64,000 bases of DNA from an uncultured bacterium (lineage in GTDB: Bacteria > Omnitrophota > Gorgyraeia > Duberdicusellales > CBEUCJ01): NCBI GenBank assembly GCA_965541615.1, contig CBEUCJ010000001.1:131754-195753 (forward strand), given 5' to 3'. The notes beneath the pieces were generated by a model, which saw only the letters and a list, made by a program, of their open reading frames with translations, did not search any database and was not told the origin of the DNA. Shown piece by piece: positions 3,450 through 26,841 of the stretch. Each line of letters starts with the position of its first letter. Within the stretch, counting starts at the first letter, position 1. Both the position numbers and the translations under genes were made by a program.

Positions 3450-3464
3450 ACTAGGAGGCAGAAA

Positions 3465-4619: not shown

Positions 4620-4651
4620 AAAATTAAATTTTAAAAAACAAAGGAGGCAAA

Positions 4652-8744: not shown

Positions 8745-8755
8745 GGAGGTGAACT

Positions 8756-9229
8756 ATGAGTTGGGGTATAGTTTTGGCTATATTAGGAGGAGCTTTAGCT
8801 GTAATTTTAGGGGGTATAGGTTCTTCAATTGGGGTAGGGAAAACAGGTCAAGCTTCTAATGGAGTAATGAGCGAGAATCCTGAACACTTTGTACCTTTAA
8901 TGCTATTAACAGCTTTACCTGGAACTCAAGGAGTATATGGATTTTTGATAGGATTTATTTTAGCTATGAAGTTAGGATTGTTAAAAGGAGAGTTAGCTTC
9001 TTTAGACCTTTATCAAGGAGCAGCTATGTTCTTTGCTTGTCTACCAGTAGGAGTAGCAGGTTTGGTTTCGGCTATCTATCAAGGAAGAGTATGTGCTACA
9101 GGAGTATATATGGTTTCCAAACAGCCAAAGGAATTTGTAAAGCCTTTAGTTTTGGCAGTGTTCGTAGAGTTTTATGCAGTTTTAGGATTATTAATTTCAA
9201 TATTGATTTTAAATGGAATTAAATTATGA
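8756..9229 (+). CDS. atpK: A/V-type ATPase proteolipid subunit K (c-subunit)
   Basis: 157 aa, duplicated hairpin rich in Gly/Ala. Good RBS (GGAGGTG). Confidence 0.85.
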   Translation: MSWGIVLAILGGALAVILGGIGSSIGVGKTGQASNGVMSENPEHFVPLMLLTALPGTQGVYGFLIGFILAMKLGLLKGELASLDLYQGAAMFFACLPVGVAGLVSAIYQGRVCATGVYMVSKQPKEFVKPLVLAVFVEFYAVLGLLISILILNGIKL

Positions 9230-9660
9230 AGGAGTTATCAGAGCTTTTAAACAAAATAATTTTAGAGAAAGAGAAAGAAAAAGAAGAGATTCTAAAGAAC
9301 GCTCAAATAAAAAAGGAAGAGATTTTAGCTTCTATTAGAAAAGAAGCCCAAAACTATTTTTCTGAAATATTTTTAAAAAAGAAAGAAGAGTTAAAAAAGA
9401 AAAAAAGAGAGATTTTATTTGAAGAAAAATTAAAAAATAAAAGATTGCTTTTACAAGAAAAAGAAGAATTAATAAAAGATGTTTTTAAAGAAATTAAATT
9501 ATTTTTAGAAAAAAATTCTAATTTTATCCCTAAAAAAGAAATCGTTAAGAAAGATGAGAAAATTCAGCAAAATCTTACAATAGAAGAGTTTTTAGAATTT
9601 TTAAAAGAGAATTTTAAAGGAACTCTTTTGAAGATAATAGATGATGAGTTACGATTATAG
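9226..9660 (+). CDS. atpE: A/V-type ATPase subunit E
   Basis: 144-aa Lys/Glu-rich coiled coil in the expected operon position. Confidence 0.65.
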   Translation: MKELSELLNKIILEKEKEKEEILKNAQIKKEEILASIRKEAQNYFSEIFLKKKEELKKKKREILFEEKLKNKRLLLQEKEELIKDVFKEIKLFLEKNSNFIPKKEIVKKDEKIQQNLTIEEFLEFLKENFKGTLLKIIDDELRL

Positions 9661-10306
9661 TTTTTCTTTGGGCAGAATAGGTGCATTAGAAAAGAAGTTG
9701 ATTTCTCCAGAATATTTTTATGAGATTCTAAAGTTTGATTTTCCTGAAGGTCTTTCAAAATTAAGAGATAAGTTTTTTGGTGATTTAAAAGATTTTGAAG
9801 ATATAGATATGTTTTTTTTAAAAGAAGAAGATTATCTTTATGAAAATTTGGAAGTTCTTTTAGAAGAGAAATTAAGAATATTTTTGAAGAAAGCATTCGA
9901 TTTAAATTTTATAAGTAAGAATCTAAATTTATTGAATTCTGAATATTTAAAGAAATATTTTCTTCTTTCAGTAAAATTAGAGAATGCTCTTTTAGATTTG
10001 AGAAGAAAATATTTAGGGATAAAAAAAGATTTAAACTTGCGTGATTTCCCTTCTTCTTTTATAAAAGAAGCTCAAAGTTTAATAGATGAGGGTAAAATTT
10101 ATCTTTTACATTTTTTAAAGATAAGATTTCTTTTGAGATTTTTAGAAGAATTTAAAAAAAATCTTTTAGGAGCTGAGATAGTTTTTTGGTATTTTTTTAA
10201 TAAGAAATTTCAATATGATATTTTAAAATTTATTATTATATGCAAAATGAGAAAAATTGAGATAAATAAAATAAAGAATGTTTTGGAGGTGAGTTTTGGA
10301 AAGTAA
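9641..10306 (+). CDS. atpC: A/V-type ATPase subunit C (d-like)
   Basis: Assigned by operon position between E and F. 221 aa is shorter than typical for this subunit. Confidence 0.5.
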   Translation: MMSYDYSFSLGRIGALEKKLISPEYFYEILKFDFPEGLSKLRDKFFGDLKDFEDIDMFFLKEEDYLYENLEVLLEEKLRIFLKKAFDLNFISKNLNLLNSEYLKKYFLLSVKLENALLDLRRKYLGIKKDLNLRDFPSSFIKEAQSLIDEGKIYLLHFLKIRFLLRFLEEFKKNLLGAEIVFWYFFNKKFQYDILKFIIICKMRKIEINKIKNVLEVSFGK

Positions 10307-10562
10307 GATTTTGTTTATAGGAAAAGATGAACTTGCAGAATTCTTTAAAATATTAGGATTTGAATCTTTAAAAGTAGAAGATTTAGAAAGGATAAAAGAA
10401 ATGCAAGATTTTAAGATAATTTTGTGTGAAGAAGATCTCTATGAAAAACTTTTAGAGAAATTTAAAGATAGAATAATAGTTCCTTTTTGTAATCTAGAAG
10501 AAAAAAAAGAGCTTTTAAAAGAGAATATTTATCACTTAGTAAAAGAGACAATAGGCAAATAA
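10296..10562 (+). CDS. atpF: A/V-type ATPase subunit F
   Basis: 88 aa, in the position immediately before the A subunit. Confidence 0.65.
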   Translation: MESKILFIGKDELAEFFKILGFESLKVEDLERIKEMQDFKIILCEEDLYEKLLEKFKDRIIVPFCNLEEKKELLKENIYHLVKETIGK

Positions 10563-10565
10563 AAA

Positions 10566-12311
10566 ATGAAACCTCAAATTGTAAGAGTATCAGGTCCTTT
10601 AGTGGTAGCAAAGAATTGCGTAGGAGCAAAAATGCACGAGATGGTAAAGGTGGGTGAAATAGGTTTAGTAGGTGAGATTATAGAACTAAGAGAAGATTTA
10701 GCTTTTATTCAGGTCTATGAAGATACAACAGGCATAGGTCCTGGAGAACCTGTAGTTTTGTTAAATAGACCTTTGAGTGTGGAATTAGGACCTGGTCTAT
10801 TAGGTAAGATATTCGATGGGATTCAAAGACCTTTAGATAAAATTTATTCTGAAAAAGGAGATTTTATAGAAAGAGGAATAGAAATTTTTGCTTTAGATAG
10901 AAAGAAAAAATGGAAATTCACTCCTGTTAGAAAAAAAGGAGAGTTTGTTAAAGAAGGAGATATTATAGGAGAAGTAAAAGAGACTCCTTTAATCACCCAC
11001 AAAATATTAGTTCCTCCTCAGATTGAAGGCAAAATCTGTGAAATTAAAGAAGGAGAGTTTAGTGTGGAAGAAGAAGTAGCTGTAATAGAAACTTTGAGAG
11101 GAAAAGTTCCTGTTAAACTTTACCAAATTTGGCCAGTAAGAGAAAAAAGACCTTTTAAAAAAAGGTTAATGCCTTCTGAGATTTTAGTGACTGGTCAAAG
11201 GATTTTAGATACTTTTTTTCCTTTAGCTAAAGGAGGAACAGCTTGTTGTCCAGGTCCTTTTGGAGCAGGCAAAACTGTCTTACAACATCAATTAGCAAAG
11301 TGGTCAGATGCTCAAATTATAGTTTATGTTGCTTGTGGAGAAAGAGGGAATGAGACTGCAGATTTATTATTAAGTTTTCCAGAGTTAAAAGACCCTAGGA
11401 CCAAAAGACCTTTGTTAGAAAGAACCATTATAATAGCTAACACCTCTAATATGCCAGTAGCTGCCCGTGAAGCTTCAATCTATACAGGTATTACCATTGC
11501 AGAGTATTTTAGAGACCAAGGTTACAATGTAGCTTTAATGGCAGATTCCACTTCAAGATGGGCTGAAGCTCTGAGAGAAATTTCTGGAAGGATGGAAGAG
11601 ATGCCTGGTGAAGAAGGATACCCTGCATATTTACCTGCAAGATTAGCTGAATTTTATGAGAGGGCAGGAAAAGTTATTACTTTAGGATCAGATGAGAGGA
11701 TAGGTTCAATAAGTATAATAGGGGCAGTCTCTCCTCCAGGAGGAGATTTATCAGATCCTGTAGTCCAAGGGACTTTAAAGGTAGTTAAAGCTTTTTGGGG
11801 TTTAGATGACAAGTTAGCTAACGCTAGACACTTTCCAGCTGTAAATTGGTTAATAAGCTATTCTTTATATAATCAGCTTTTAGATGAGTTTAAAAAAGAA
11901 AAAATAGCTGAAGATTTTGAAATGCTAAGAATTGAAGCTATGAAGATTTTAGAAGAGGAAGAAGAATTAAAAGAAATAGCCAGATTAGTAGGATTAGAAG
12001 CTTTATCTAATTATGATAGATTGAAGTTAGAAATAGCTAGATCTTTAAGAGAAGATTTCTTGCATCAGAATGCTTTTGATGAAACAGATACCTATACTTC
12101 TTTAAAAAAACAGTATTTAATGCTCAAATTAATTATGAAATTTTATGAAGATGCAAAAAAAGCTTTGGAAAAAGGAAAAGATTTAGATAAAGTAGTAAAA
12201 GTCTCTTCAAGATTTATGATTTCAAAAGCAAAGTTTGTAAGAGAAGAAGAGTTTGAAGAGTTTTTTAAAGAAGTTTCAAAAAAAATAGAATTAGAATTAG
12301 ATGAAATTTAA
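10566..12311 (+). CDS. atpA: A/V-type ATPase catalytic subunit A
   Basis: P-loop GPFGAGKT, 581 aa including the non-homologous insert region. Confidence 0.95.
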
Positions 12312-14563: not shown

Positions 14564-14638
14564 GGGCGGGTAGTTCAGCCTGGATAGAACGCTTCCCTTA
14601 CAAGGAAGAGGTCGGCAGTTCAAATCTGCCCCCGCCCA
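14564..14638 (+). tRNA. tRNA-Val (anticodon UAC)
   Basis: Acceptor pairs GGGCGGG/CCCGCCC. Anticodon loop CTTACAA, T-loop GTTCAAATC. No CCA is encoded. Confidence 0.9.
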
Positions 14639-14776
14639 GGTTTATAGAGATATTTCTATTCTATTTATTTTGAAAAAAATAAATATTCAAATGTCAATTT
14701 ATTTGTCTATTTAATGTTATATTTATTTGACATTTAATTAGAATATATGTTACAATTATTATGGAGGTGATAAAAA

Positions 14777-15100
14777 GTGCTTACTTTTGAAGAAAAGACG
14801 ACTTTAGTAGGGATCTCAGAGTTAAGGACAAAGATGAAGGAGATTTTAAAACAAGCTAAAGAAAATAGGGTATTTATTGGCAAAAGAAACAAATTAATTG
14901 CAGTATTGTTAGATATAGAAGAATACAGAAAGATGGAGAAGGTTTTAGAAGAGTTAGAAGATTTTGCCTTAGGATATTTGGCTCATCGTAGAGAAAAAAT
15001 TTCTTATAAAAAGCAATATTTAGACATAGAAGAGGTAGAAAAAATAATAGATGATATGGAAGATCAAATTCCATCCCCTTGTAGTAAAAGAAGACCTTAA
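14777..15100 (+). CDS. Phd/YefM-family antitoxin
   Basis: GTG start after a GGAGGTGA RBS. The N-terminal fold (TLVGISELRTKMKEIL...NKLIAVLLDIEEY) is typical of Phd/YefM. Confidence 0.8.
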   Translation: MLTFEEKTTLVGISELRTKMKEILKQAKENRVFIGKRNKLIAVLLDIEEYRKMEKVLEELEDFALGYLAHRREKISYKKQYLDIEEVEKIIDDMEDQIPSPCSKRRP

Positions 15101-15338
15101 AAGAATAGACCCTTCTTGGAGAAGGAGAATCATAAAAACAATAAAGAAAAAGCTATCAGTAGATCCTTCAAATTATGGTGAACCTTTAAAGGGAATATAT
15201 AAAAAATACTGGAAATTGAAAGTAGGAGATTATAGAGTTATATATAAGATAGAAAAAAAAGAAATAGTAGTATATGTAATTAAAGTTGGAATAAGAAAAG
15301 ATTATAAAGTCTATAAAGAACTTTTTTACAGAATCTAA
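15051..15338 (+). CDS. RelE/ParE-family toxin
   Basis: 95 aa ending in ...YRVIYKIEKKEIVVYVIKVGIRKDYKVYKELF. Overlaps the antitoxin by 50 nt. Confidence 0.8.
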   Translation: MIWKIKFHPLVVKEDLKRIDPSWRRRIIKTIKKKLSVDPSNYGEPLKGIYKKYWKLKVGDYRVIYKIEKKEIVVYVIKVGIRKDYKVYKELFYRI

Positions 15339-15368
15339 AAAGATAGTGTTGCATATTTTTTATAATTA

Positions 15369-15396
15369 TTGAAAAAAATCAAAGTTGTTATATAAT
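15369..15396 (+). promoter_or_regulatory. Sigma-70-like promoter for tRNA-Asp (TTGAAA, 16-nt spacer, TATAAT)
   Basis: -35 at 15369-15374 and -10 at 15391-15396, about 11 nt upstream of the tRNA. Confidence 0.45.
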
Positions 15397-15407
15397 TTTT
15401 CTACAAT

Positions 15408-15486
15408 GGGGCCGTCGTCTAGCCTGGTTTAAGACCCCGGACTGTCGATCCGGTGATCGTGGGTTCAAATCCCATCGGCCCCGCCA
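15408..15486 (+). tRNA. tRNA-Asp (anticodon GUC), CCA encoded
   Basis: Acceptor pairs GGGGCCG/CGGCCCC. Anticodon stem CCGGA/TCCGG with loop CTGTCGA. T-loop TTCAAAT and a terminal CCA. Confidence 0.85.
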
Positions 15487-15617
15487 TTTGGGACAAAGGG
15501 AATAACTGCTGACACCGAAGGGACATCTGAAGTAGGCGGTTGTTCTTTTACATAGATATTTCTAAATATAAGTTAGCTAAATAAGTAAAAGAAAACTTAC
15601 TTTTTAAGACTTTAGGA

Positions 15618-15998
15618 TCAGAAACGACGTGCTAAGTATTTCCCTTTAGAGAGGACAGAATTTTTAAATAGAGGAGATTTATCTAACTCTTCTTTTGTAT
15701 ACACAAACAAGTCTACATTTAATTCCAGATCTTTAAAGTAATCTATGAAATCTAAGGGTCTGTCTATAAATCTTTTATGGGAATAGCTCACTATAATGAG
15801 AATATCTATATCACTGAGAGGGGTAGCTCTATTTTCTGCTAAGGATCCAAAAAGAACCACACTTTCAACATTTCTGTCGTCAGCGATAATCTTGTGAGCG
15901 ATACTCTTCAATCTTTCTAAGAGAACTTCTCTATTTAGCCAGAATACCTTCACAGAACCGTAAGATTTCTTTACAATCACTGATCGCATTTTCAACAT
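15618..15998 (-). CDS. Minimal nucleotidyltransferase (MNT) of a HEPN/MNT toxin-antitoxin module
   Basis: GS...D.D nucleotidyltransferase motif ([22 protein letters not shown]). Overlaps the HEPN partner gene. Confidence 0.75.
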
Positions 15999-16207
15999 CC
16001 TCTTTCTTGTAGTCCTCTTAGTAAATCATAAACTGAATGACCCCATGCTTGACCTGAAAGCTTTTGATATAAAGCTTTAACTGCTTTTTCTGCTGCTTGT
16101 TGAGAGATGAAACATGCCCACTCAAAAAAACCTTCTTTTAATTGAGAACGTGCACTTTCTAAATCTCTTTTAGCTTGCTTAAACCAGTCAGAACTCCTCT
16201 CAGGCAT
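15992..16207 (-). CDS. HEPN-domain protein (partner of MNT)
   Basis: 71-aa helical protein with an ...[10 protein letters not shown]... HEPN-like core, in 5' overlap with the MNT gene. Confidence 0.65.
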
Positions 16208-16591: not shown

Positions 16592-16912
16592 TTAAAATGT
16601 AATAACTTTATCACACTTTTTTACTATATCATATAAATCTTTCATTGTAGAAAGAGGACAAGTTTCTGAACCTTCTGATTGGCGAATTTTTAGACAACTT
16701 CCACAGGCAAGAATTTTACCACCATTTTCAATAAATGTTTGCATTTGTTCTGTAACCTTAAATTTATCTGTATCTAAGGATTCACATTCTACTCCTTTTG
16801 CAAGTAAAAATATTTCTACCTCATCATTCTCTTTTAAAGTAAAGTTTCCAAATCTAAAAGCATTCCATACAGTTTCAGAGTCGTTTGAGTAAATTATGAT
16901 TCCCAACTTCAT
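16592..16912 (-). CDS. DsrE/DsrF-like (YchN-like) sulfur-relay family protein
   Basis: 106 aa with a GGKILACGSC motif region. Confidence 0.6.
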   Translation of the reverse strand: MKLGIIIYSNDSETVWNAFRFGNFTLKENDEVEIFLLAKGVECESLDTDKFKVTEQMQTFIENGGKILACGSCLKIRQSEGSETCPLSTMKDLYDIVKKCDKVITF

Positions 16913-17044: not shown

Positions 17045-17323
17045 ATGAGAAGAAAAGAAATAACCCAAATCTATCAAATAATCAACAAAACTTTCAGAGA
17101 CATAACTCTGACTTTTGCTGGATTAGCCTTGGAAAATAACTTCAAAGATGAGGCAATCACAGACTTTGCCAATTGCCTTGAAGATATCTATTATCAAACC
17201 TTAAACAAAATAGAAAAACTCGCAAAGAAAACCTCTTATTTTGAATTTAACACAAAAGAATATCTGCATCCTCATCCAGCAATAGTAAAATTGTTAAGAA
17301 TTTTTAACTTGGTACCAAAGTAA
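17045..17323 (+). CDS. Hypothetical protein
   Basis: 92-aa ORF with a GGAGG RBS and no recognisable motif. Confidence 0.35.
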   Translation: MRRKEITQIYQIINKTFRDITLTFAGLALENNFKDEAITDFANCLEDIYYQTLNKIEKLAKKTSYFEFNTKEYLHPHPAIVKLLRIFNLVPK

Positions 17324-17373
17324 GGTAAAATTTTATTTTGTTGTATTAAAGAAGATTGTTTTTATAAAATATA

Positions 17374-18273
17374 TTGAAAGAGTTAAAAATGGCAAAGTGT
17401 GTATCTTGTAAAAAATCTGCTCAAATAAAGATTGCTTTTGCTCCTTTTTGTGAGAGTTGTTTTTTAAAGCACTATCAAAATAGAGTAGAAAGATTAATTA
17501 AAAAATTTAAACTTATAAAAGAGAAAGATAAAATTTTAGTTGCAGTTTCAGGTGGTAAAGACAGTATGAGTTGTGCACATGTTTTAAGTAAATTCAGACA
17601 GAGATTTAAATTTGAAATGGGAGTCTTACACATAGATGTAGGAGTCTCAGATTGCACCAATGAAAATACTGAAAATATAATCAGAGATTTTTGCAATGAA
17701 TACAAAGTTCCTTTTTATCTTTTAAAAATAAAAGAATATTTAGGTTTAGATATAAAAGAGGTATCTAAAAAAATAAGAAGACCTATATGTTCAATCTGTG
17801 GGATGGTTAAAAGGTACGCCTTAAATAAATTTGCTCGTGAGAATGGATTTAATAAAATAGCTACAGGTCACTGTGCAGATGACATTACTTTACTTTTCTT
17901 TAAAAACTGGTTCTCTTATTATTTTGATTGGATAGCTAAATTTAAGCCTATTATGCCATCAAATCATCCTAAAATAGTTACCCGTATAAGACCTTTATTT
18001 GAATGTTTAGAAGAGGAAAATTTAACATATGTAAAGCTCAATAAAATAAAAATAGCAGGTTGCTCTAAATATTCTTATTCAGTAAGAAAAGATAAACTAA
18101 AAGAAATATTAAAACTCATAGATTCAAAAAAACCTGATTTTAAGATAAATTTTGTAAGAGCTTTAGAGAGAGTAGAAATAAAAGTAAAAGAACCCGATTC
18201 CATTAAAGAATGCATAAAATGTGGTGAACCCACAGACAAAGAGATCTGTGGAGTATGTAGACTTAAAATGTAA
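17374..18273 (+). CDS. PP-loop ATPase tRNA sulfurtransferase, TtuA/NcsA-like
   Basis: N-terminal CxxC..CxxC, PP-loop SGGKDS, internal CSICG...GHCADD, and C-terminal CIKCG...CGVC zinc finger. Confidence 0.75.
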   Translation: MKELKMAKCVSCKKSAQIKIAFAPFCESCFLKHYQNRVERLIKKFKLIKEKDKILVAVSGGKDSMSCAHVLSKFRQRFKFEMGVLHIDVGVSDCTNENTENIIRDFCNEYKVPFYLLKIKEYLGLDIKEVSKKIRRPICSICGMVKRYALNKFARENGFNKIATGHCADDITLLFFKNWFSYYFDWIAKFKPIMPSNHPKIVTRIRPLFECLEEENLTYVKLNKIKIAGCSKYSYSVRKDKLKEILKLIDSKKPDFKINFVRALERVEIKVKEPDSIKECIKCGEPTDKEICGVCRLKM

Positions 18274-18294
18274 AAAAGTAAATTTTTTGAACTT

Positions 18295-18322
18295 TTGACT
18301 TTCATAAGTTCTTTTATATAAT
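18295..18322 (+). promoter_or_regulatory. Sigma-70-like promoter (TTGACT, 16 nt, TATAAT) immediately upstream of cysK
   Basis: The -10 ends 7 nt before the ATG at 18330, which suggests a leaderless or near-leaderless transcript. Confidence 0.4.
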
Positions 18323-18329
18323 TAAGTTT

Positions 18330-19244
18330 ATGAAGGTAGCAAAATCTGTTTTAGACTTAATTGGTAATACCCCTTTAGTAAGATTAAGAAAGATAGAAAA
18401 AGGATTAAATGTAAAATTAGTAGCGAAATTAGAATTTTTTAATCCAGCTAAAAGCTTAAAAGATAGAGTAGGATTTTTTATGTTAAAAGATGCTGAAAAA
18501 AAAGGTTTAGTCAATAAAAATACACTTATTATTGAAGCTACAAGTGGTAATACAGGAATAGCTTTAGCAGTTGTGTGTGCTTATAAAAATTATAAATTGA
18601 TTTTAACTATGCCAGAAGATGTTTCAGAAGAAAAGAAAAGACTTCTTTCTTTATTTGGAGCAAAGTTAATTTTTACTCCTTCAAAAGAAGGAATGAGAGG
18701 AGCAATAAGAAAAGCAGAAGAACTATCAAAAAAGTACTCTAATTCCTTTTTTGTTCGTCAATTTGAAAATCTGGCAAATCCTAAGGCACATTACCTTACT
18801 ACTGCTCAAGAGATTTGGAAAGATACCGATGGTAAAGTAGATATATTAATAGCAGGAGTTGGAACAGGAGGCACTATTACAGGTGTAGCTAAGTTTTTAA
18901 AAAAGAAAAAGAAGGAGATAAAAATAATAGCTGTAGAACCTAAAAATTCAGCTGTATTGAGTGGTAAAAAACCAGGTATTCATAAAATTGAAGGGATAGG
19001 TGCAGGTTTTATTCCTAAAATTTTAAAAAAAGAATTATTAGATGAAGTAATATGTGTAGAAGATGAAAAAGCTATCAAGATGACTAAAAGATTAGCAAGA
19101 GAAGAAGGGATTTTGGTAGGTTTATCTAGTGGAGCTGTTCTATGGGCAGCTTTACAGATAGCTAAGAGAAAGGAAAATAAAGGTAAGTTAATAGTTATGA
19201 TTTTTGCTGATAGCGGAGAAAGATATTTATCAGAGTTAGCTTGA
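18330..19244 (+). CDS. cysK: Cysteine synthase (O-acetylserine sulfhydrylase)
   Basis: PLP-binding lysine motif (NPAKSLKDR), SGNTGIALA, and a GTGGT glycine loop. Confidence 0.9.
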   Translation: MKVAKSVLDLIGNTPLVRLRKIEKGLNVKLVAKLEFFNPAKSLKDRVGFFMLKDAEKKGLVNKNTLIIEATSGNTGIALAVVCAYKNYKLILTMPEDVSEEKKRLLSLFGAKLIFTPSKEGMRGAIRKAEELSKKYSNSFFVRQFENLANPKAHYLTTAQEIWKDTDGKVDILIAGVGTGGTITGVAKFLKKKKKEIKIIAVEPKNSAVLSGKKPGIHKIEGIGAGFIPKILKKELLDEVICVEDEKAIKMTKRLAREEGILVGLSSGAVLWAALQIAKRKENKGKLIVMIFADSGERYLSELA

Positions 19245-19262
19245 AAATATGGAGGAAAAATT

Positions 19263-20039
19263 ATGGAGGCAATAATCTCTAAAGCAATCCTTGAAACATT
19301 TTTTAAAGAATTTAAGGAATACTTAGAGGTAGATGTAGCTATTGCAGGGTGTGGTCCTTCAGGATTAGTATGCGGATATTATTTAGCAAAAGAAAAGGTT
19401 AAAGTAGCTATATTTGAAAGACAATTAAGACCTGGAGGAGGTATTGCTGGTGGGGGGATGATGTTTAATAAAATAGTATTAGAAGAATCTGCTAAAGAGA
19501 TTTTAGAAGAGTTAGATATAAATGTTAAAAAATACAAAAAAAATCTCTATGTAGCAGATGCTTTGGAAGTAACAAATGGTTTATGTTTTAAAGCTATAAA
19601 AGCAGGGGTTAAGATTTTCAACCTTATAAATGTAGAAGATGTCGTAATAAGAAAAAATAAAATTGCAGGTTTAGTCTTAAACTGGAGTGCAGTAAATTGG
19701 GCACAACTCCATATAGATCCTTTAGCTGTTAAAGCAAAAGTAGTAGTAGATGCTACAGGTCATGAAGCTGAAATCTGTAAGATTATAGAAAGAAAGTTAG
19801 GAACTGTATTTTGCACTCCTTCAAGTAAAGTAGAAGGAGAAAAATCTATGTGGGCAGAAAAAGGTGAATCTGAACTTTTAAAAAATACTAAAGAAGTATA
19901 TCCAGGTTTGGTGGTATGTGGTATGGCAGCAAATGCTGTTTTTGGTGCAGAGCGTATGGGAGCAATCTTTGGAGGTATGTTTTTATCAGGTAAAAAAGCC
20001 TCTAGAATCATTATAAAAAAATTAAATAAAGATGGCTAA
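19263..20039 (+). CDS. thi4: Thiazole synthase Thi4 family (thiamine thiazole biosynthesis)
   Basis: FAD/NAD dinucleotide fold (AIAGCGPSGL) and a Thi4-like GGGMMFN motif. Confidence 0.8.
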   Translation: MEAIISKAILETFFKEFKEYLEVDVAIAGCGPSGLVCGYYLAKEKVKVAIFERQLRPGGGIAGGGMMFNKIVLEESAKEILEELDINVKKYKKNLYVADALEVTNGLCFKAIKAGVKIFNLINVEDVVIRKNKIAGLVLNWSAVNWAQLHIDPLAVKAKVVVDATGHEAEICKIIERKLGTVFCTPSSKVEGEKSMWAEKGESELLKNTKEVYPGLVVCGMAANAVFGAERMGAIFGGMFLSGKKASRIIIKKLNKDG

Positions 20040-21210
20040 AACGATAGCTGAAATAAATGAGAAGATAAAAAAAGGTAAAGTAGTAGTAGTTACAGCAGAA
20101 GAGATGAAAGAGATTGTGAGAAAGAAAGGTGAAAAAAAAGCTGCAGATTATGTGGATGTAGTGACTACTGCTACTTTTGGTCCTATGTGTTCTTCAGGTG
20201 CTTATTTAAATCTCCCAAATACTGCTCCAAAGATTAAATTAGGAGGAGGTAAAGTCTACATTAATGGAGTACCTGCTTATGCAGGATGGGCAGCTTATGA
20301 TATTTACATAGGAGCTACAGCTTTACCAGAAGATGACCCTCGAAATAAAATTTATCCTGGAGAATTTAAGTATGGAGGAGGTCATGTAATAGAGGATTTG
20401 GTAAGGGGAAAAGATTTAAGATTAGAAGCTAAAGCCTATGGAACAGATTGTTATCCTCAAAAAAGGTTAGATATTACTATTAATATTAAAACTATCCCTC
20501 AAGCAATTTTATTTAATCCAAGGAATGCTTATCAAAATTATAATGTGGCTGTAAATTTATCTAACAAGATTATTTATACTTACATGGGAGTTTTAAAACC
20601 AAATCTGGGCAATGCAAATTACTGTAGTGCAGGTCAACTCTCTCCCCTTTTGAACGATCCTTTTTATAAGACTATAGGAATAGGCACAAAAGTATTTTTA
20701 GGAGGAGGAATAGGTTTTGTATGTTGGTCAGGAACACAACACAACCCTAATGTAGAAAGGACCCAGAGAGGAGTGCCTACTCAGCCTGCAGGTACTTTAG
20801 CTTTAATAGGAGATTTAAAGCAGATGTCTCATGAATTTTTAAGGGGAGTGAGTATTTTAGGTTATGGAGTAAGTTTGAGTGTAGGAATAGGTGTGCCTAT
20901 TCCTATATTAAATGAAGAGATGGCTTTTTATACCTCAGTAAGAGATGAGGAAATTTTTGCTCCTGTAATAGATTACAGTAAAGATTATCCTGAATCTACA
21001 GGCAGAATAATAGCAAAGGTAAGCTATGCAGATTTAAGGAAAGGTAAGATTAAAATTTTAAATAAAGAAGTCCCCACAGCAAGTTTGTCCAGTTATGCAA
21101 AAGCTCGCCAGATAGCTCAAATTTTAAAATCTTGGATAAAAGAAAAAAAATTCTTTTTAACCGAACCTGTCTCGCCTTTACCTTTTTCACAAAATTACAA
21201 GGATGATTAA
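20032..21210 (+). CDS. DUF39/COG1900 family protein (homocysteine-biosynthesis sulfur-incorporation enzyme family)
   Basis: 392 aa with conserved DUF39 blocks (VDVVTTATFGPMCSSGAYLN, GGGIGFVCWSGTQHNP). Confidence 0.7.
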   Translation: MAKTIAEINEKIKKGKVVVVTAEEMKEIVRKKGEKKAADYVDVVTTATFGPMCSSGAYLNLPNTAPKIKLGGGKVYINGVPAYAGWAAYDIYIGATALPEDDPRNKIYPGEFKYGGGHVIEDLVRGKDLRLEAKAYGTDCYPQKRLDITINIKTIPQAILFNPRNAYQNYNVAVNLSNKIIYTYMGVLKPNLGNANYCSAGQLSPLLNDPFYKTIGIGTKVFLGGGIGFVCWSGTQHNPNVERTQRGVPTQPAGTLALIGDLKQMSHEFLRGVSILGYGVSLSVGIGVPIPILNEEMAFYTSVRDEEIFAPVIDYSKDYPESTGRIIAKVSYADLRKGKIKILNKEVPTASLSSYAKARQIAQILKSWIKEKKFFLTEPVSPLPFSQNYKDD

Positions 21211-22219
21211 AACCTTAAACGATGTATTAGTTTGGTTAAGAGAAGATAAATATGAGAATTTGATATTTTTATTTAAAGAAGCTGACAGATGTAGAAAGGA
21301 ATTCGTTGGAGATAAAGTCCATTTAAGAGGACTTATAGAATTTTCAAATTATTGTATAAGAAACTGCCTTTACTGTGGTTTAAGAAGAGAGAATACTAAA
21401 TTAAAACGCTATCGTATGGAAATTAAAGAGATTTTCAAACAAGTTAAACTCATCCAAAAATTGGGTTTTAAAACAGTAGTCCTTCAATCTGGAGAGGACC
21501 CTTATTATAGAATAAAAGATCTATGTAGACTTATAGAAAAAATTAAGAAAAAATTAAACTTAGCTGTAGCTTTATGTATAGGAGAAAGAAGTTTTAGAGA
21601 TTATAAAGATTTGAAAGAGGCAGGAGCTGATAGATACCTTCTTAAGTTTGAGACTTCAGATTACAAGCTTTATAAAAAATTAAAGCCAGACAGTTCTTAT
21701 AAGAATAGATTTAGATGTTTAGAATATCTTAGGAGATTAGATTTTCAAACTGGTTCAGGGAACATAGTGGGTTTACCTTTTCAATCTTTGGAGAGTTTAG
21801 CACAAGATATTATGTTATTTAAAGAGTTAGATTTAGACATGATAGGGATAGGACCTTTTATACCCCATCCCAATACACCTTTAAGAGAATTTTCTTCTCC
21901 AAAATTAGAATTAGTTTTAAAAGTTATAGCTTTGACAAGACTTATAACTAAAATTACTCATATTCCAGCTACGACTGCTATGGGTACACTTTATAACAGA
22001 GGAAGAGAAAAAGCTTTAGAATGTGGAGCAAATGTGATAATGCCAAATGTAACTCCTCAAAAATATAAAAAATATTATCAAATATACCCCAATAAAGTCT
22101 GTGTTAAAGAGAATCCGAAAGAATTTAAAATTTATATTGAAAAATTTCTTGCTTCTATAGGAAGAAAGATTGCCACTGATTTTGGGCATAGTTTAAGAAA
22201 GAATCTGGTATTTTTTTAA
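21203..22219 (+). CDS. Radical SAM protein, HydE-like (BioB/HydE family)
   Basis: CxxxCxxC (CIRNCLYC) with extensive block similarity to [FeFe]-hydrogenase maturase HydE as recalled from memory (SGEDPYY, AGADRYLLKFETS, IGPFIPHPNTPL, IPATTAMGT, CGANVIMPN). Confidence 0.75.
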   Translation: MIKTLNDVLVWLREDKYENLIFLFKEADRCRKEFVGDKVHLRGLIEFSNYCIRNCLYCGLRRENTKLKRYRMEIKEIFKQVKLIQKLGFKTVVLQSGEDPYYRIKDLCRLIEKIKKKLNLAVALCIGERSFRDYKDLKEAGADRYLLKFETSDYKLYKKLKPDSSYKNRFRCLEYLRRLDFQTGSGNIVGLPFQSLESLAQDIMLFKELDLDMIGIGPFIPHPNTPLREFSSPKLELVLKVIALTRLITKITHIPATTAMGTLYNRGREKALECGANVIMPNVTPQKYKKYYQIYPNKVCVKENPKEFKIYIEKFLASIGRKIATDFGHSLRKNLVFF

Positions 22220-22229
22220 ACTGATTAAA

Positions 22230-23264
22230 ATGAAAAAAAGAGTAGGAGTAGCAATAAGTGGAGGCATAGATTCAGCTGTGGCAGCTTTTTTGCTTAAAAA
22301 AGCAGGTTTTGAAGTGGTAGGTTTTACAATGTATTTAGGTATAAACAACTTTAAATCCCATAGTATAGAAGATGCAAAGAAAGTATGTGAGAAGTTAGAG
22401 ATACCTCATTATGTTTTAGATTTATCAAATGAATTAGAAGAGATAGTAATAAAAAGGTTTATTAATGAATACTTAGAAGCAAAAACCCCTAACCCTTGTG
22501 TAGAATGTAATAGGTTTATAAAATTTGGAGTTTTTTTAGAAAGAGTGCTTTCAGCAGGATGTGATTTTTTTGCTACAGGTCATTATGCAAAGATAAAAAA
22601 AGTTGGAGATGATTTCTTATTGAAGAAATCTAAAGATAAAACAAGAGACCAAACTTACTTTCTTTATTCTATAGACAAAGAGAAATTTAAGTATATAATC
22701 TTTCCTTTAGGTAATTTTACTAAAGAAAGAGTGAAAAAAATAGCTCAAAAATATAAACTGTGTGAAAATCTAAATTCTGAAAGTCGTGATATTTGTTTTG
22801 TACCTCAAGGTGATTACAGAAAATTTATTTTAGAAAGAGTAAAAGAAATAAAACCTGGTCCTATTTTTGATTTGGAAGGTAATTTTTTAGGGATGCATAA
22901 AGGGATAGTTTTTTATACAGTAGGTCAAAAAGAAGGTTTAGGGCTAATAACAAATAAACCTTTATATGTAATAAATATAGATGCTAAGAAAAATCAAATA
23001 ATAGTGGGAGAAAGAGAGTTTTTAAAAGCAAAAGGTTTGGTAGCTGGTAGAGTAAATATTTTAGTAAAAAGATTACCTCCAGAAGCTGAGGCCAAAATCA
23101 GATACTCTCATAAACCTGCTAAATGTAGAGTTTTTTTAGAAAATGGTAAATTAAAAATAATATTTTATGAAAAACAAGAAGCTATTACTCCTGGGCAGTC
23201 TGTAGTTCTTTATCAAAAAGATGTGGTTATTGGAGGAGGGATTATTGAGGAGGTTTTAAATTGA
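22230..23264 (+). CDS. mnmA: tRNA-specific 2-thiouridylase
   Basis: PP-loop SGGIDS and the conserved catalytic Cys regions. 344 aa. Confidence 0.9.
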   Translation: MKKRVGVAISGGIDSAVAAFLLKKAGFEVVGFTMYLGINNFKSHSIEDAKKVCEKLEIPHYVLDLSNELEEIVIKRFINEYLEAKTPNPCVECNRFIKFGVFLERVLSAGCDFFATGHYAKIKKVGDDFLLKKSKDKTRDQTYFLYSIDKEKFKYIIFPLGNFTKERVKKIAQKYKLCENLNSESRDICFVPQGDYRKFILERVKEIKPGPIFDLEGNFLGMHKGIVFYTVGQKEGLGLITNKPLYVINIDAKKNQIIVGEREFLKAKGLVAGRVNILVKRLPPEAEAKIRYSHKPAKCRVFLENGKLKIIFYEKQEAITPGQSVVLYQKDVVIGGGIIEEVLN

Positions 23265-24163
23265 ATATTCAAAAAGAGATCGAAAAGCTAAAAAAGGAAA
23301 AAAATGCTATAATTTTAGCTCATAATTATCAATTGCCTGAAATTCAAGATATAGCAGATTTTGTAGGCGATTCCTTAAATTTAAGCATTAAAGCTAAAGA
23401 CACAAAAGCTCAAATTATAATTTTTTGTGGAGTCCACTTTATGGCTGAGACTGCCAAAATCTTATCACCACAAAAGAAAGTTTTAATTCCTGTTAAAGAA
23501 GCAGGGTGTAGCTTAGCTGATAACATTACTGTCCAACAGATAAATAAATTAAAGAAAAAGCATCCTAATGCAAAGGTTTTATGTTATGTTAATACCACAG
23601 CTAAGATAAAAGCAAAGAGCAATGTAGTATGTACTTCAGCTAATGCTGTTGAGGTAACAGAAAAAGTTTTAAAAGATGAAGAGGTAATTTTTATTCCTGA
23701 TAAATATTTAGGTTTATATACGATGAGAAAGACAAATAAAAAATTTATATTGCATTCAGGTTACTGTCCTGTCCATGTGAGTATAAGAAAAGAAGATATA
23801 GAAAGACAGAAAAAACTCCATCCAAAAGCTAAAATCTTAGCGCATCCAGAATGTTTACCTGAAGTAATAGATTTAGCAGATAAAGTCTTATCTACAGAAG
23901 GAATGTGCAGGTACGCTAAAAAAACTAAATTTCAAGAGATGATAATAGCTACAGAAATAGGGATCTTACATAGATTGAGAAAAGAAAATCCTAAGAAAAA
24001 GTTTTATCCTGCTTCAAAAACAGCAGTATGTCCTTTCATGAAGGTCATAAGATTAAAGGATGTTTTAGACTCATTAAAATATGAAAGGTATCCTGTTGAG
24101 GTACCTCTCTCTGTAAGGTTAGGTGCTTATAGAGCTATTCAAGAGATGTTAAAAGTAAGCTAA
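23261..24163 (+). CDS. nadA: Quinolinate synthase
   Basis: 300 aa with the NadA triple-repeat architecture and conserved Cys residues. Confidence 0.85.
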   Translation: MNIQKEIEKLKKEKNAIILAHNYQLPEIQDIADFVGDSLNLSIKAKDTKAQIIIFCGVHFMAETAKILSPQKKVLIPVKEAGCSLADNITVQQINKLKKKHPNAKVLCYVNTTAKIKAKSNVVCTSANAVEVTEKVLKDEEVIFIPDKYLGLYTMRKTNKKFILHSGYCPVHVSIRKEDIERQKKLHPKAKILAHPECLPEVIDLADKVLSTEGMCRYAKKTKFQEMIIATEIGILHRLRKENPKKKFYPASKTAVCPFMKVIRLKDVLDSLKYERYPVEVPLSVRLGAYRAIQEMLKVS

Positions 24164-24179
24164 ATCGTTACTCAAACTT

Positions 24180-24899
24180 ATGTTAAGAGTAGAAAATTTA
24201 TATGTAGAGGTTGGAGGCAAAACAGTAGTTAAAGACGTGCAGCTTTTTATTAAAGAGAATGAAGTAGTAGTTCTATTTGGTCCAAATGGAAGTGGGAAGA
24301 CAAGTTTGGTAAAAGCTATAATGGGGTTTGGTGGTTATTCGATAAAGAAAGGTAGAATTCTATTTAAAAATAAAGATGTAACTTTTATTCCAATAGAAGA
24401 AAGAGTCAAATTAGGTATAGGTCTAATGCCTCAACATCCTCCGAAAGTAAGAGGTGTAAAATTAATTCAGTTAGCTGAATTTTTATGTAATGATAGAGAA
24501 AGGATTAAAAATTTAGCAGAAAGCTTTCTTTTACAAGACCTTTTATACAGGGATGTAAATGTAGATTTTTCAGGAGGTGAGATTAAAAGATCAGAATTAT
24601 TCCAACTCTTTCTTCAAAACCCTGACCTTTTACTTTTAGATGAACCTGAATCAGGAGTAGATATTGAGAATATATCTATAATGGGTAAGATGTTGAGAAA
24701 ATATTTAGAAAATAAAGGAAAATCAGCTCTTATAATTACACATACTGGTTACATTTTAGATTACGTACCTGCTCATAAAGGATACGTGATGATAGAAGGT
24801 AGCCTACATTGTGTAGGTTCACCTAAGGAAATATTTAAAAGAATAAAAGAAGTTGGTTATGAAAAATGTAAGGAGTGTAAATGGCAAATGAAAAAATAA
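24180..24899 (+). CDS. sufC: Fe-S cluster assembly ATPase
   Basis: Walker A GPNGSGKTS, ABC signature FSGGE, and the SufC-typical C-terminus. Confidence 0.85.
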   Translation: MLRVENLYVEVGGKTVVKDVQLFIKENEVVVLFGPNGSGKTSLVKAIMGFGGYSIKKGRILFKNKDVTFIPIEERVKLGIGLMPQHPPKVRGVKLIQLAEFLCNDRERIKNLAESFLLQDLLYRDVNVDFSGGEIKRSELFQLFLQNPDLLLLDEPESGVDIENISIMGKMLRKYLENKGKSALIITHTGYILDYVPAHKGYVMIEGSLHCVGSPKEIFKRIKEVGYEKCKECKWQMKK

Positions 24900-25978
24900 A
24901 GGAAATTTTAAAAGAAGATTTTGAAGCGTTAACTTCTTCTGGTATAGAATTTACTAAAGAAAAACATTCAGCAAATTTTTTTCAACAAGATGATGAAGTT
25001 TTATTTTCTAAAAGTTTTTTGGAAGGAGTAGAGATATTAGACATAAAAAAAGCTTTAAAAGATTCAGAGGTAAAAAATTATTTAGGAAAAGGTTTTAAAA
25101 TTTTAAATAAAAACCACCCTACAGATATTTGTGGAGGTTATTTTATAAGAGTGAAAAAATCTAACACTGTAGAGATTCCTATTCAAGCATGTCTTTTTTT
25201 AAAAAAGAGAGGTTTTAAACAAAAAGTTCACAATATAGTAATAGTAGAAGAAGATGCTAAAGTTTATATTATTACAGGATGTGTAGCTTCCCAAAGTTCT
25301 AAAGAAAGTTTTCATTTGGGAATCTCTGAATTTTTTATTAAAAAAGGAGGTTATTTAAACTTTACAATGATCCACTCTTGGCATAAGGATGTGAAGGTAA
25401 GACCAATGAGTGTAGCTGTTGTAGAAGAAGGAGGAAATTTTGTTTCAAATTATATATGTTTGAAACCTGTAAAAGAAGTGGTTATGTATCCTATAGCTGT
25501 GTTAAAAGGTAGAAATTCTAAAGCAAGTTTTAATTCTTTAATAATGTCTCATTCAGATTCTTATCAGGATATAGGAGCAAGAGTTATTCTAAAAGAGGCT
25601 AATACTCAGGCAGAGATTATCTCAAGGAGTGTGAGTTTAGGGGGTAAGATTGTTGTGAGAGGTCATCTAAAAGCAGAAAGTAAAGATGTAAAAGCTCATT
25701 TAGAATGTAGAGGTTTGGTCTTTTCAGATAAAGGGAGTATACATGCTATTCCTGAGTTAGAGACACACTTTAAAGATGTAAATCTTTCTCATGAAGCTGC
25801 TATTGGAAAGATAAGCAGAGATGAGATAGAATATTTAAGGTCTAAAGGATTTAATGAAAAGCAAGCCCAATCTTTAATTATAAGAGGTTTTATGGACGTA
25901 GATATTTTAGGCTTGCCAGAATCTTTAAAAAAAGAGATTAAAAATATAGAAGAAAATATTCTAAAAGAGAGTTTTTGA
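24881..25978 (+). CDS. SufB/SufD family Fe-S cluster assembly protein
   Basis: 365-aa beta-helix family protein immediately after sufC. Confidence 0.75.
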   Translation: MANEKIKEILKEDFEALTSSGIEFTKEKHSANFFQQDDEVLFSKSFLEGVEILDIKKALKDSEVKNYLGKGFKILNKNHPTDICGGYFIRVKKSNTVEIPIQACLFLKKRGFKQKVHNIVIVEEDAKVYIITGCVASQSSKESFHLGISEFFIKKGGYLNFTMIHSWHKDVKVRPMSVAVVEEGGNFVSNYICLKPVKEVVMYPIAVLKGRNSKASFNSLIMSHSDSYQDIGARVILKEANTQAEIISRSVSLGGKIVVRGHLKAESKDVKAHLECRGLVFSDKGSIHAIPELETHFKDVNLSHEAAIGKISRDEIEYLRSKGFNEKQAQSLIIRGFMDVDILGLPESLKKEIKNIEENILKESF

Positions 25979-26841
25979 ATTTAAAGATGTCAAAAATATT
26001 TAAAAAGATTAGTTTTATCTTATCCTTTTTAATATGTATTAACGTATCTTCACAGGTTAAAGATTCAAAGTTAAAAGAGTTACGTATGCAAATAGTTCTT
26101 TACAATTTAGTAAAGAATCTTTATCTCACTAAAGAACAAGCAGAATTTTTATTAGAAAAAGCTAAAGTAGCCAAAAATTTAAAGGAAGATTTTGAAGAAA
26201 AGTTTAAAGAGATATTTTCTCAACAGAAGCAAATTTTGAGTGATTTGAAAGAAATATTGAAAGAGGAAAGCGGAGTAATTCCTCAAAAACTTAAAAAAGA
26301 GTTGCATAAAACCGAGTATGAGCTAAAAAAGCTTCGCAAAGAATATATTCAAAAATTAGATGAAATAGTTAAAGAGGTAAAATCTAAGCTCTCAGATTCT
26401 CAAATTTACATAATTGAAAATTTTAAACCCTGTCTCATTCCTCCAAAAAGTTCTAAATTAATAGGCCAAGCTTTTTCTTCAAAAAGGTTAGAAAAAAAGT
26501 TAGAGTTTTTAAGAAAACTTCCTTGTCAAGAATACATATTTAAAAGAGATAGATTTATAGAGAATTTTTTAAATCATATTTTGTTGAGATTTCCGAAAAT
26601 AGAAGAAAAGAAATTAGAAGAGATTAGGGAGAATTTAGTTGAAATTTTAGATAAAATGAGAGAATTGTCAGATATAGATTTCTCACTTCAAAAAGAGCAA
26701 ATATTAGAGGAAATAAAAAATATTTTTTCTCCTAAATTTTCTTTCAAAGAAAAAAACATAGATGACAAAATACTCCATTTTTTACTTAATCCTCAAATAA
26801 TACCTATTTTGGAGGAGATTTTGGAAACCACAAATTTTTGA
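25975..26841 (+). CDS. Hypothetical secreted coiled-coil protein
   Basis: N-terminal signal peptide and a Lys/Glu-rich body with no enzyme motifs. Confidence 0.4.
   Translation: MNLKMSKIFKKISFILSFLICINVSSQVKDSKLKELRMQIVLYNLVKNLYLTKEQAEFLLEKAKVAKNLKEDFEEKFKEIFSQQKQILSDLKEILKEESGVIPQKLKKELHKTEYELKKLRKEYIQKLDEIVKEVKSKLSDSQIYIIENFKPCLIPPKSSKLIGQAFSSKRLEKKLEFLRKLPCQEYIFKRDRFIENFLNHILLRFPKIEEKKLEEIRENLVEILDKMRELSDIDFSLQKEQILEEIKNIFSPKFSFKEKNIDDKILHFLLNPQIIPILEEILETTNF

Follow-up and report, generated by a model that had tools for sequence, protein, structure and literature searches.

The radical SAM protein encoded at positions 21203-22219 of the window (the whole 64-kb stretch of DNA that was analysed) is, by every sequence test applied, a normal orthologue of HydE, the maturase of [FeFe]-hydrogenase. 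We consider it reasonably probable that it is a canonical HydE belonging to a dispersed maturation system, and that its operon neighbours, including DUF39, reflect a lineage-specific rearrangement. Of the two readings offered in the original prediction, a dispersed hydrogenase-maturation system fits the data best; a HydE paralogue that had joined DUF39 in a novel chemistry of sulfur insertion was not borne out, because the protein clusters within canonical HydE and the DUF39-HydE pair is not conserved.

The hydE gene lies in a tightly packed plus-strand run spanning 17374-26841. Six sulfur-related ORFs (TtuA-like to MnmA) had been proposed, with DsrE-like and Suf genes near the block, and their positions, strand and families are confirmed, the families by profile scores; however, the block does not end at MnmA, since NadA, SufC, SufB and one further ORF continue the run to 26841. 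The features are as follows.

16592-16912, minus strand: DsrE/DsrF-like small sulfur-relay protein, divergent from the block (PF02635, 43.3 bits)
17374-18273, plus strand: TtuA/TtcA-family PP-loop tRNA thiolase-like protein, 299 aa (PF01171, 56.6 bits)
18330-19244, plus strand: cysteine synthase A, CysK (TIGR01139, 439.2 bits; cutoff 351)
19263-20039, plus strand: Thi4, sulfide-dependent ADP-thiazole synthase (TIGR00292, 330.8 bits; cutoff 148; PF01946, 279 bits)
20032-21210, plus strand: DUF39/HcyBio (COG1900) of the stand-alone homocysteine-biosynthesis type, L-aspartate-semialdehyde sulfurtransferase (PF01837, 510 bits, full length)
21203-22219, plus strand: HydE-type radical SAM protein (TIGR03956, 341.7 bits; cutoff 254.6)
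22230-23264, plus strand: MnmA, tRNA 2-thiouridine(34) synthase (NF001138, 378.2 bits; cutoff 284)
23261-24163, plus strand: NadA, quinolinate synthase, a [4Fe-4S] enzyme (NF006878, 417 bits; cutoff 294)
24180-24899, plus strand: SufC-like Fe-S assembly ATPase (PF00005; TIGR01978, 162.6 bits, under the cutoff of 212.8)
24881-25978, plus strand: SufB/SufD-like scaffold, minimal SUF/SMS-like (PF01458, 144 bits)
25975-26841, plus strand: 288-aa ORF with a hydrophobic N-terminus, overlapping SufB by 4 nt, last of the run

The TtuA-like protein, whose translation may in fact begin at an ATG at position 17389, is assigned at the family level only, since it scores 195.7 bits on the TtuA model NF049949 against an equivalog cutoff of 450; it carries an SGGKDS PP-loop, CxxC pairs at the N- and C-terminus, and C139/C142/C230. 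MnmA has a CxxC pair (C90 and C93) and C189. The SufB/SufD-like protein scores under the cutoffs of both TIGR01980 (176.9 bits) and SmsB (161 bits), and the final ORF had no match in the Pfam scan, a 283-aa gene being likewise located 3' of SufB in the sister locus L001. The Thi4 and DUF39 ORFs overlap by 8 nt, as do those of DUF39 and HydE (ATGATTAA, 21203-21210), for which 4 nt had been claimed. The strongest sigma-70-like site of the region is found at 18295-18322 (11/12 match), and promoter-like sites in the region are not more numerous than expected from shuffling. The order of the block recurs in GCA_053996315.1, a separate assembly from a sister lineage (loci L001/L002), whose HydE is 82% identical.

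The HydE-like character of the radical SAM protein, recognised in the original prediction, is supported by both profile scores and phylogeny: the scores set it far apart from BioB, ThiH and PylB, and the tree places it within canonical HydE. The next best models after TIGR03956 were PylB (155 bits; cutoff 348), BioB (106; 225), HmdB (75; 321), HydG (71; 312) and ThiH (64; 380), and membership in each of these families, which have the TIM-barrel radical SAM fold and the CX3CX2C motif in common with the window HydE, was rejected. A phmmer search against PDB gave 345 bits for Thermotoga maritima HydE, 103.5 for PylB, 66 for HydG, and 46 for BioB and ThiH. Compared with this characterised maturase (TM1269; PDB 3CIW/3CIX/7O1P), the window protein is ~51% identical over the whole barrel and keeps, in T. 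maritima numbering, the CX3CX2C cysteines C63/C67/C70, M224 and M291 (thioether Fe relay), K309, R54, R155, R180, T268, T269, Q107 and E161, the functions of which have been described (PMC10114646, PMC11826987). Among canonical HydEs, 94 columns reach 90% conservation or more; the window protein departs from seven of these, and members of the canonical set from 3.0 on average (sd 4.1, max 18). Unlike T. maritima HydE, it has Ala (A123) in place of T134, a residue that contacts the CN ligand in QM/MM models; Ala is present in 6/6 strain variants, whereas T134 is invariant in canonical HydEs (42/42). The auxiliary-cluster cysteines C319 and C322 are also missing, as in a known subset of HydEs for which this cluster is dispensable (PMC10114646). 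Furthermore, its gene is not encoded with hydG/hydF but between DUF39 and mnmA.

In a neighbor-joining tree of 92 unique HydEs, the window HydE and L002 join L044, which adjoins hydA, hydF and hydG (67% bootstrap), and the group falls inside the radiation of hyd-clustered HydEs. HydEs encoded in a sulfur context are not monophyletic in this tree but interleaved with hyd-clustered ones, without long branches, and they score 337-385 bits on the HydE equivalog, as high as canonical proteins. The two closest homologues outside the lineage (62% identity) are L106, with the order TM1266-AspA-HydF-HydG-x-HydE and GcvH and GcvT nearby, and L105, a solitary hydE in a genome sharing Fpg-PyrK-TauE-PyrD-PyrF synteny with the window.

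HydA, HydG and HydF were not found in the 64-kb window by tblastn with seeds from canonical loci or by Pfam scans covering almost every ORF of 100 aa or longer, in agreement with the absence already noted in the original prediction. This absence is weak evidence, because hydE is often dispersed: of the 37 HydE loci flanked by 5 kb or more on each side, 17 lack any further hyd gene inside 8 kb. Locus tags of clostridial hydE, hydG and hydF are likewise far apart (PMC9431212). The absence of hyd genes from 64 kb, the T134A replacement, the missing C319/C322, the occupation of the NIL/ferredoxin-IscS-IscU slot and the recurrent sulfur linkage all count against a canonical-HydE reading.

The DUF39 protein is 70-75% identical to stand-alone entries of ~400 aa annotated as homocysteine biosynthesis protein or L-aspartate semialdehyde sulfurtransferase, and C53, C140 and C198 are common to it and the relative L100. 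[quoted passage not shown] The NIL/ferredoxin and COG2122 had been treated as one protein in the original prediction, which was mistaken, since the MA1822 type and the ApbE-like MA1715 are two separate proteins (PMC5764234). A NIL/ferredoxin gene lies immediately 3' of DUF39 in 4/5 close relatives, a position held by hydE here, and neither NIL/ferredoxin nor a COG2122-like gene is present anywhere in the window. One further reading would make HydE the working DUF39 partner, taking over from NIL/ferredoxin (and COG2122) when sulfide is incorporated into aspartate semialdehyde, or serving some other thiolation that depends on DUF39. The 8-nt overlap, suggestive of translational coupling, and retention of the pair in the 82% sister would agree with this; however, the adjacency is seen only in this lineage and that sister, with 0/90 among the other unique HydE loci and 0/5 among close DUF39 relatives, making a new DUF39-HydE chemistry unlikely. 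In addition, the window DUF39 shows no changes suggestive of a new partner relative to its NIL/ferredoxin-partnered orthologues, to which it is 70-75% identical, the HydE has not diverged from canonical HydE, and in D. vulgaris DUF39 and its partners (DvMF_1464, DvMF_0262, DvMF_0044) are dispersed (PMC5764234). We therefore regard such a partnership as very improbable, the earlier intuition being right about the slot that hydE fills and probably wrong about joint chemistry.

Operons of the Rrf2(IscR/CymR)-cysteine desulfurase-(IscU)-MnmA type occur as cymR-yrvO-mnmA in Bacillus subtilis and as iscR-iscS-iscU-mnmA in clostridia. Their Omnitrophota-type counterparts read CysK-DUF39-NIL/ferredoxin-ApbE-like-IscS-MnmA-NadA in L100 and CysK-DUF39-x-IscS-IscU-MnmA in L104, and the corresponding window order is CysK-Thi4-DUF39-HydE-MnmA-NadA, so that hydE occupies exactly the position of NIL/ferredoxin, COG2122-like, IscS and IscU genes. 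The CysK...MnmA-NadA order and content are the same (identities of 73% for DUF39, 60% for CysK, 54% for NadA and 47-55% for MnmA), and both versions combine cysteine provision with tRNA thiolation and Fe-S supply. Unlike these operons, the window block contains SufC-SufB 3' of NadA and additional TtuA-like and Thi4 genes, and has hydE instead of Rrf2, IscS and IscU, none of which is found in the 64 kb. Recurrence of hydE in Rrf2/CysK/IscS/MnmA/ThiI operons was observed in several lineages.

Arrangements without hydG/hydF include CysK-ThiM-HydE-MnmA (L035 and L047), MnmA-OAHS-CysK-HydE-ThiI (L006), HydE-ThiI (L020), Rrf2-IscS-HydE (L072), HydE-NifS-NifU (L030) and divergent IscS and HydE (L065), a linkage not obviously predicted by simple co-regulation. 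Of the 37 well-flanked loci, 7 show a context of this kind. Sulfur-operon HydEs, in this lineage and in others, might act independently of hydrogenase, replacing IscS-IscU and mobilising sulfur or Fe-S(H) by radical attack on metal-bound cysteine sulfur for the adjacent thiolation and Fe-S enzymes. Pfam scans revealed no Aminotran_5 desulfurase in the 64 kb, the chemistry of HydE is a radical C-S cleavage of cysteine (PMC10114646), and T134A falls at the CN-contacting site, all in favor of such a role. However, the residues handling Fe(CO)2(CN) species are conserved except T134, the scores and tree positions of sulfur-context HydEs are those of canonical ones, and in an Omnitrophica relative (L003/L004) a HydABC-type [FeFe]-hydrogenase is encoded immediately after Rrf2-CysK-ThiM-HydE-MnmA. 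IscS and hydE also occur together in L072, L030 and L065, which means that hydE cannot be a mere stand-in for IscS, and no hydrogenase-free genome with a sulfur-context hydE has been encountered so far. A second, sulfur-mobilising role of HydE thus has a small chance and seems unlikely to explain the locus. Loss of the [FeFe]-hydrogenase, leaving a functionless hydE that travels with the operon, would also account for the missing hyd genes and the fixed T134A, but is extremely improbable: purifying selection on hydE argues against it (dN/dS of 0.09 relative to the 82% sister at dS ~1.1, similar to neighbouring, essential genes), seven variants from two lineages all retain an undisrupted ORF, and HydE is 62% identical to that of L105 when housekeeping genes are 33-45% identical.

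Under the preferred reading of a canonical HydE, the hydE of this low-GC anaerobe, probably Omnitrophota-like, lies apart from hydG, hydF and hydA and would have moved into a lineage-specific ~9.5 kb operon of cysteine-, sulfide- or Fe-S-cluster-consuming enzymes (TtuA-like, CysK, Thi4, DUF39, MnmA, NadA and SufCB), whose counterpart in related genomes is Rrf2-CysK-DUF39-NIL/ferredoxin-(COG2122-like)-IscS-IscU-MnmA-NadA. DUF39 would be an ordinary homocysteine-pathway enzyme, close to hydE as a by-product of operon rearrangement, and its partners, together with hydA, hydG, hydF and the rest of the hydrogenase system, are expected elsewhere in the genome. The co-location of the operon genes may reflect a common need for cysteine and Fe-S supply.

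The radical SAM gene hydE is one of ten ORFs that follow each other without interruption on the plus strand, with gaps of no more than 56 nt and overlaps of 4 to 19 nt at five junctions. The gene order of this run, assigned by family scans, is listed here with the other window loci discussed.

Features of the window
4652-5008: 118-aa ORF between a glycosyltransferase gene and pyrD, aligned with the TauE/SafE sulfite-exporter profile over its C-terminal half only (positions 130-237 of 237)
14564-14638: tRNA-Val
14777-15338: Phd/YefM-ParE toxin-antitoxin pair
15408-15486: tRNA-Asp
15618-15998, minus strand: nucleotidyltransferase
15992-16207, minus strand: 71-aa HEPN-like ORF overlapping the nucleotidyltransferase
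17374-26841, plus strand: TtuA/TtcA-family PP-loop protein, CysK, sulfide-dependent Thi4, stand-alone DUF39/HcyBio, HydE, MnmA, NadA, SufC-like, SufB/D-like, 288-aa ORF without family
20032-21210, plus strand: DUF39/HcyBio (COG1900/PF01837)
21203-22219, plus strand: HydE
57475-58560: radical SAM/SPASM protein; several ORFs without Pfam match, each about 300-500 aa long, come after it (to 63960)
58745-59635: ORF without Pfam match
60581-61573, minus strand: ORF without Pfam match
61548-63059, minus strand: ORF without Pfam match

ORF and family scans confirmed that all six sulfur genes named in the original prediction are real, but the full block is longer than proposed there (ten ORFs, to 26841), and the DUF39 gene shares 8 nt with hydE (ATGATTAA) rather than 4. 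A DsrE-like gene is located upstream of the operon on the opposite strand, and neither an Aminotran_5 desulfurase nor an Rrf2 regulator is encoded anywhere in the 64-kb window. Searching the whole window with Rfam at the gathering threshold returned two tRNAs and nothing else, and control of the operon by a riboswitch or other RNA was therefore rejected; promoter-like sites were uninformative (47 observed vs 49.8 expected), and no terminator-like site stood out inside the block. G+C content is about 29% across the whole window, the rest of which is occupied by housekeeping genes (pyrimidine synthesis, V/A-type ATPase, DnaG and RpoD, IleRS, MreBC/PBP2/RodA, and glycosyltransferases). The toxin-antitoxin pair, flanked by the two tRNA genes, and the minus-strand genes after it (14564-16207) make up a small islet of mobile or defence type shortly before the sulfur operon, and the region 57475-63960 may hold a cluster for peptide modification or one of another, uncharacterised kind. 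A 117-aa TauE is found at the same PyrK-TauE-PyrD position in the related locus L105, which suggests that the short TauE is a conserved gene of half size rather than a fragment.

Comparison with the sister lineage (GCA_053996315.1, loci L001 and L002), whose HydE is 82% identical to that of the window, revealed that the operon is mosaic (window 17289-24042 vs L001 6085-12858). Nucleotide identity is 92-97% across TtuA-CysK-Thi4 (17289 to about 20100; dS 0.14-0.22) and falls to 68-86% from inside DUF39 onward (dS 0.7-1.2), and this drop suggests that the 5' 2.8 kb of the operon recently recombined or was transferred between the two lineages.

The original prediction had described the radical SAM protein as HydE-like, and this assignment was upheld: it scores 341.7 bits against the NCBIfam equivalog TIGR03956 (cutoff 254.6), and its best match among solved structures in PDB is Thermotoga maritima HydE (TmHydE, 345 bits), followed by PylB (103.5), HydG (66), and BioB and ThiH (about 46). 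Membership of the PylB, BioB, HmdB, ThiH and HydG families was rejected, as NCBIfam scores were all far below the respective cutoffs (PylB 155, BioB 106). The protein is 51% identical to the crystallized TmHydE and retains the CX3CX2C motif (C51, C55 and C58, aligned with Tm C63, C67 and C70). Six of the seven residues handling Fe(CO)2(CN) (Tm M224, M291, K309, R54, T134, R155 and T269) are also kept, and T134 is replaced by Ala123; R180 and T268, mapped on TmHydE, are conserved. M224 and M291 are the methionines that ligate and relay Fe(CO)2(CN) species, and K309 takes part in a proposed radical relay (PMC10114646, PMC11826987). Among the auxiliary-cluster cysteines (Tm C311, C319 and C322), the first is conserved as C300 and the other two are replaced by F308 and Y311. 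HydE proteins fall into two subsets with respect to this cluster, which is non-essential (PMC10114646); unlike TmHydE, the window protein thus belongs to the known subset without C319 and C322.

T134 belongs to a set of four polar residues for which contacts with the CN ligands have been reported. It is invariant in all 42 hyd-clustered HydE sequences (hyd denoting hydA, hydG and hydF), and codon 123 of the window gene (21569-21571) specifies Ala in all six strain-level variants and Thr in the sister lineage. At columns with at least 90% conservation among canonical HydEs, the window protein differs at 7 of 94 (canonical set: mean 3.0, sd 4.1, maximum 18), so its overall divergence is inside the canonical range. 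The dN/dS of hydE relative to the sister lineage is 0.09, like that of adjacent genes. Judged by sequence, phylogeny and constraint, the window radical SAM is an orthodox HydE.

The context counts given here come from 106 loci (L001-L106) collected by similarity to the window protein, which do not represent a random sample of HydE diversity. The first 99 loci and the window yielded 92 unique HydE sequences, whose neighbourhoods were annotated with seed proteins; a search of genome contigs with the single HydE protein gave 12 distant loci (43-52% identity). In a bootstrapped neighbor-joining tree of the 92 sequences (p-distance-derived distances, BioB as sole outgroup, deep nodes weak), the window HydE and that of its sister cluster with L044, where hydA, hydF and hydG are adjacent (67% bootstrap), within a radiation dominated by hyd-clustered HydEs. 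This placement speaks against the recruited HydE paralogue that had been proposed.

The closest proteins outside the lineage are 55-62% identical to the window HydE. The two closest, both at 62%, occur in different settings: L106 is a textbook maturation cluster (TM1266-like, aspartate ammonia-lyase, HydF, HydG, one further gene, HydE; GcvH and GcvT nearby), and at L105 hydE stands alone, in a genome having the Fpg-PyrK-TauE-PyrD-PyrF-V-ATPase synteny in common with window 1891-12311, its housekeeping proteins being only 33-45% identical to those of the window. A hydG, hydF, hydA or TM1266-like gene is found within 8 kb at 41 of the 92 unique HydE loci. Solitary hydE genes are common, since 17 of the 37 loci flanked by 5 kb or more on each side lack hyd neighbours (20 have them), and hydE, hydG and hydF have locus tags far apart in clostridial genomes (PMC9431212). 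A large clade of hydE loci, partly from Elusimicrobiota and Gastranaerophilales MAGs (L076, L080, L096, L091, L070, L077, L082, L093, L010 and L018, with HydE at about 10 kb in each), has neither hyd nor sulfur genes within 10 kb on either side, and genes for trigger factor, PBP1 and MinD-like proteins are among its neighbours. HydA, HydG and HydF are likewise not encoded anywhere in the 64-kb window, as noted in the original prediction.

DUF39 is a standard homocysteine enzyme. It matches PF01837 over its full length (510 bits, profile positions 1-349 of 349) and shares 70-75% identity with numerous stand-alone orthologues (about 400 aa), most of which carry Omnitrophica or Omnitrophota labels. 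By the names of its best DUF39 and HydE matches alone, the window lineage would be Omnitrophota-like. The proposed DUF39-radical SAM module did not survive the neighbourhood check: the two genes adjoin only in the window and in L001/L002, which carry the same TtuA-to-SufB block, and the pair is absent from the 90 other unique HydE loci and from five DUF39 relatives. Canonical placement and non-conserved adjacency, the two outcomes that the idea of a recruited paralogue had named as contrary to itself, were essentially both obtained. In the five DUF39 relatives, the following gene encodes the NIL/ferredoxin partner of DUF39 (NIL/Fd) in four and HydE in none.

Gene orders at DUF39 relatives
L100 (6608-13540): Rrf2-CysK-DUF39-NIL/Fd-AbpE_bact-IscS-MnmA-NadA
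L101: DUF39-NIL/Fd
L102, L103 (5257-9621): Rrf2-ThiI-CysK-DUF39-NIL/Fd
L104 (6423-12340): Rrf2-CysK-DUF39-x-IscS-IscU-MnmA

The Omnitrophota-type relatives (L100, L102, L103 and L104) share a conserved operon, Rrf2-(ThiI)-CysK-DUF39-NIL/Fd-(COG2122-like)-IscS-(IscU)-MnmA-NadA, which places the anaerobic homocysteine pathway inside an IscR/IscS/MnmA unit. In the window, tblastn with three NIL/Fd seeds gave no match at E<=1e-2, and the L100 AbpE_bact seed gave none for COG2122 (ApbE-like). DUF39, NIL/ferredoxin and COG2122 are not one protein but three, and their genes are far apart in D. vulgaris (PMC5764234); a missing neighbour is therefore no evidence of a missing partner, and by analogy the NIL/Fd gene may be located elsewhere in the genome.

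The window shares with L100 and L104 the conserved frame CysK...DUF39...MnmA-NadA, within which hydE of the window lineage occupies the slot of NIL/Fd, the COG2122-like gene, IscS and IscU in the relatives; in contrast to these operons, SufC-SufB come after NadA in the window. Moreover, several lineages carry hydE, without hydG or hydF, in operons of the Rrf2/CysK/ThiM/IscS/NifU/MnmA/ThiI kind.

Sulfur contexts of hydE
L003/L027, L035 (7988-12069), L047 (8235-12054): Rrf2-CysK-ThiM-HydE-MnmA
L003/L004 (7761-16577): the same arrangement, followed directly by a HydABC-type [FeFe]-hydrogenase
L006 (2098-12045): MnmA-OAHS-CysK-HydE-ThiI
L020 (1371-3481): HydE-ThiI
L072 (7954-11029): Rrf2-IscS-HydE
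L030 (128-3149): HydE-NifS-NifU
L065 (8663-11011): IscS and HydE, divergent

Such a context was observed at 7 of the 37 well-flanked HydE loci, and the sulfur-context HydEs all pass the HydE equivalog (337-385 bits). The association between hydE and sulfur genes looks real, because by a rough estimate, for a gene set chosen post hoc, only a few percent of genomes would place a random gene within 8 kb of any of about eight such sulfur genes; how many independent events it reflects is uncertain given the weak deep nodes of the tree. In Bacillus, the MnmA, ThiI and NadA genes lie beside dedicated cysteine desulfurases, which makes the position of hydE suggestive. We found no paper linking HydE with DUF39/COG1900 or MnmA, and none on the recurrence of hydE in sulfur operons. 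Betz 2015 reportedly includes a HydE genome-context network, in which the cysteine/Fe-S association of hydE may already have been reported, and we make no claim that the pattern is new.

With fair confidence, we favour a canonical HydE whose gene has been drawn into a cysteine/sulfide/Fe-S operon, with hydG, hydF and hydA elsewhere. Under this reading HydE keeps its established role, in which its radical adds to the sulfur of the HydG synthon's cysteine, pyruvate is released by S-C-beta cleavage, and Fe(I)-S units are formed for the [2Fe] subcluster; the genes that hydE has joined either supply or use up cysteine, sulfide and Fe-S clusters. The sulfur context is compatible with this canonical role, because HydABC directly follows the arrangement in L003/L004. 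Alternatively, the same chemistry might operate without a hydrogenase, mobilising sulfur or Fe-S units for the adjacent enzymes in place of IscS-IscU. The in-situ replacement of the IscS-IscU slot within a conserved frame and the recurrence of hydE in sulfur operons without hydG or hydF agree with such a function, but the active site is unchanged except at T134, the sulfur-context HydEs are interleaved in the tree of 92 sequences and form no separate clade, IscS is present alongside hydE in three cases, and HydABC is a neighbour in one; we thus consider it rather unlikely. It is also unlikely that HydE orthologues in Rrf2/CysK/IscS/MnmA/ThiI-type operons have a second, hydrogenase-independent role, as a radical SAM cysteine C-S lyase making Fe-bound sulfide or [2Fe-2S]-like units, which in sulfide-type anaerobes like the window organism would replace the missing IscS-IscU and feed MnmA, TtuA, NadA or DUF39.

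That HydE is a working partner of DUF39 seems highly improbable, the lineage-specific overlap of the two genes being its sole basis, and a functionless hydE relic is barely credible in view of the strong purifying selection on the gene. The protein is HydE and no DUF39-specific paralogue; most likely it is part of a dispersed maturation system, and the organism probably makes an [FeFe]-hydrogenase with scattered maturation genes.

As an annotation result, the gene is hydE, a known family member in an unusual operon. The part worth following is the recurrence of hydE without hydG/hydF in cysteine, Fe-S and tRNA-thiolation operons, here at exactly the IscS-IscU position of relatives. Finding such hydE genes in hydrogenase-free genomes would point to sulfur mobilisation by a radical SAM enzyme and give this well-studied maturase a second function; otherwise, H-cluster maturation would appear to be tied to the regulon that supplies cysteine and Fe-S clusters.
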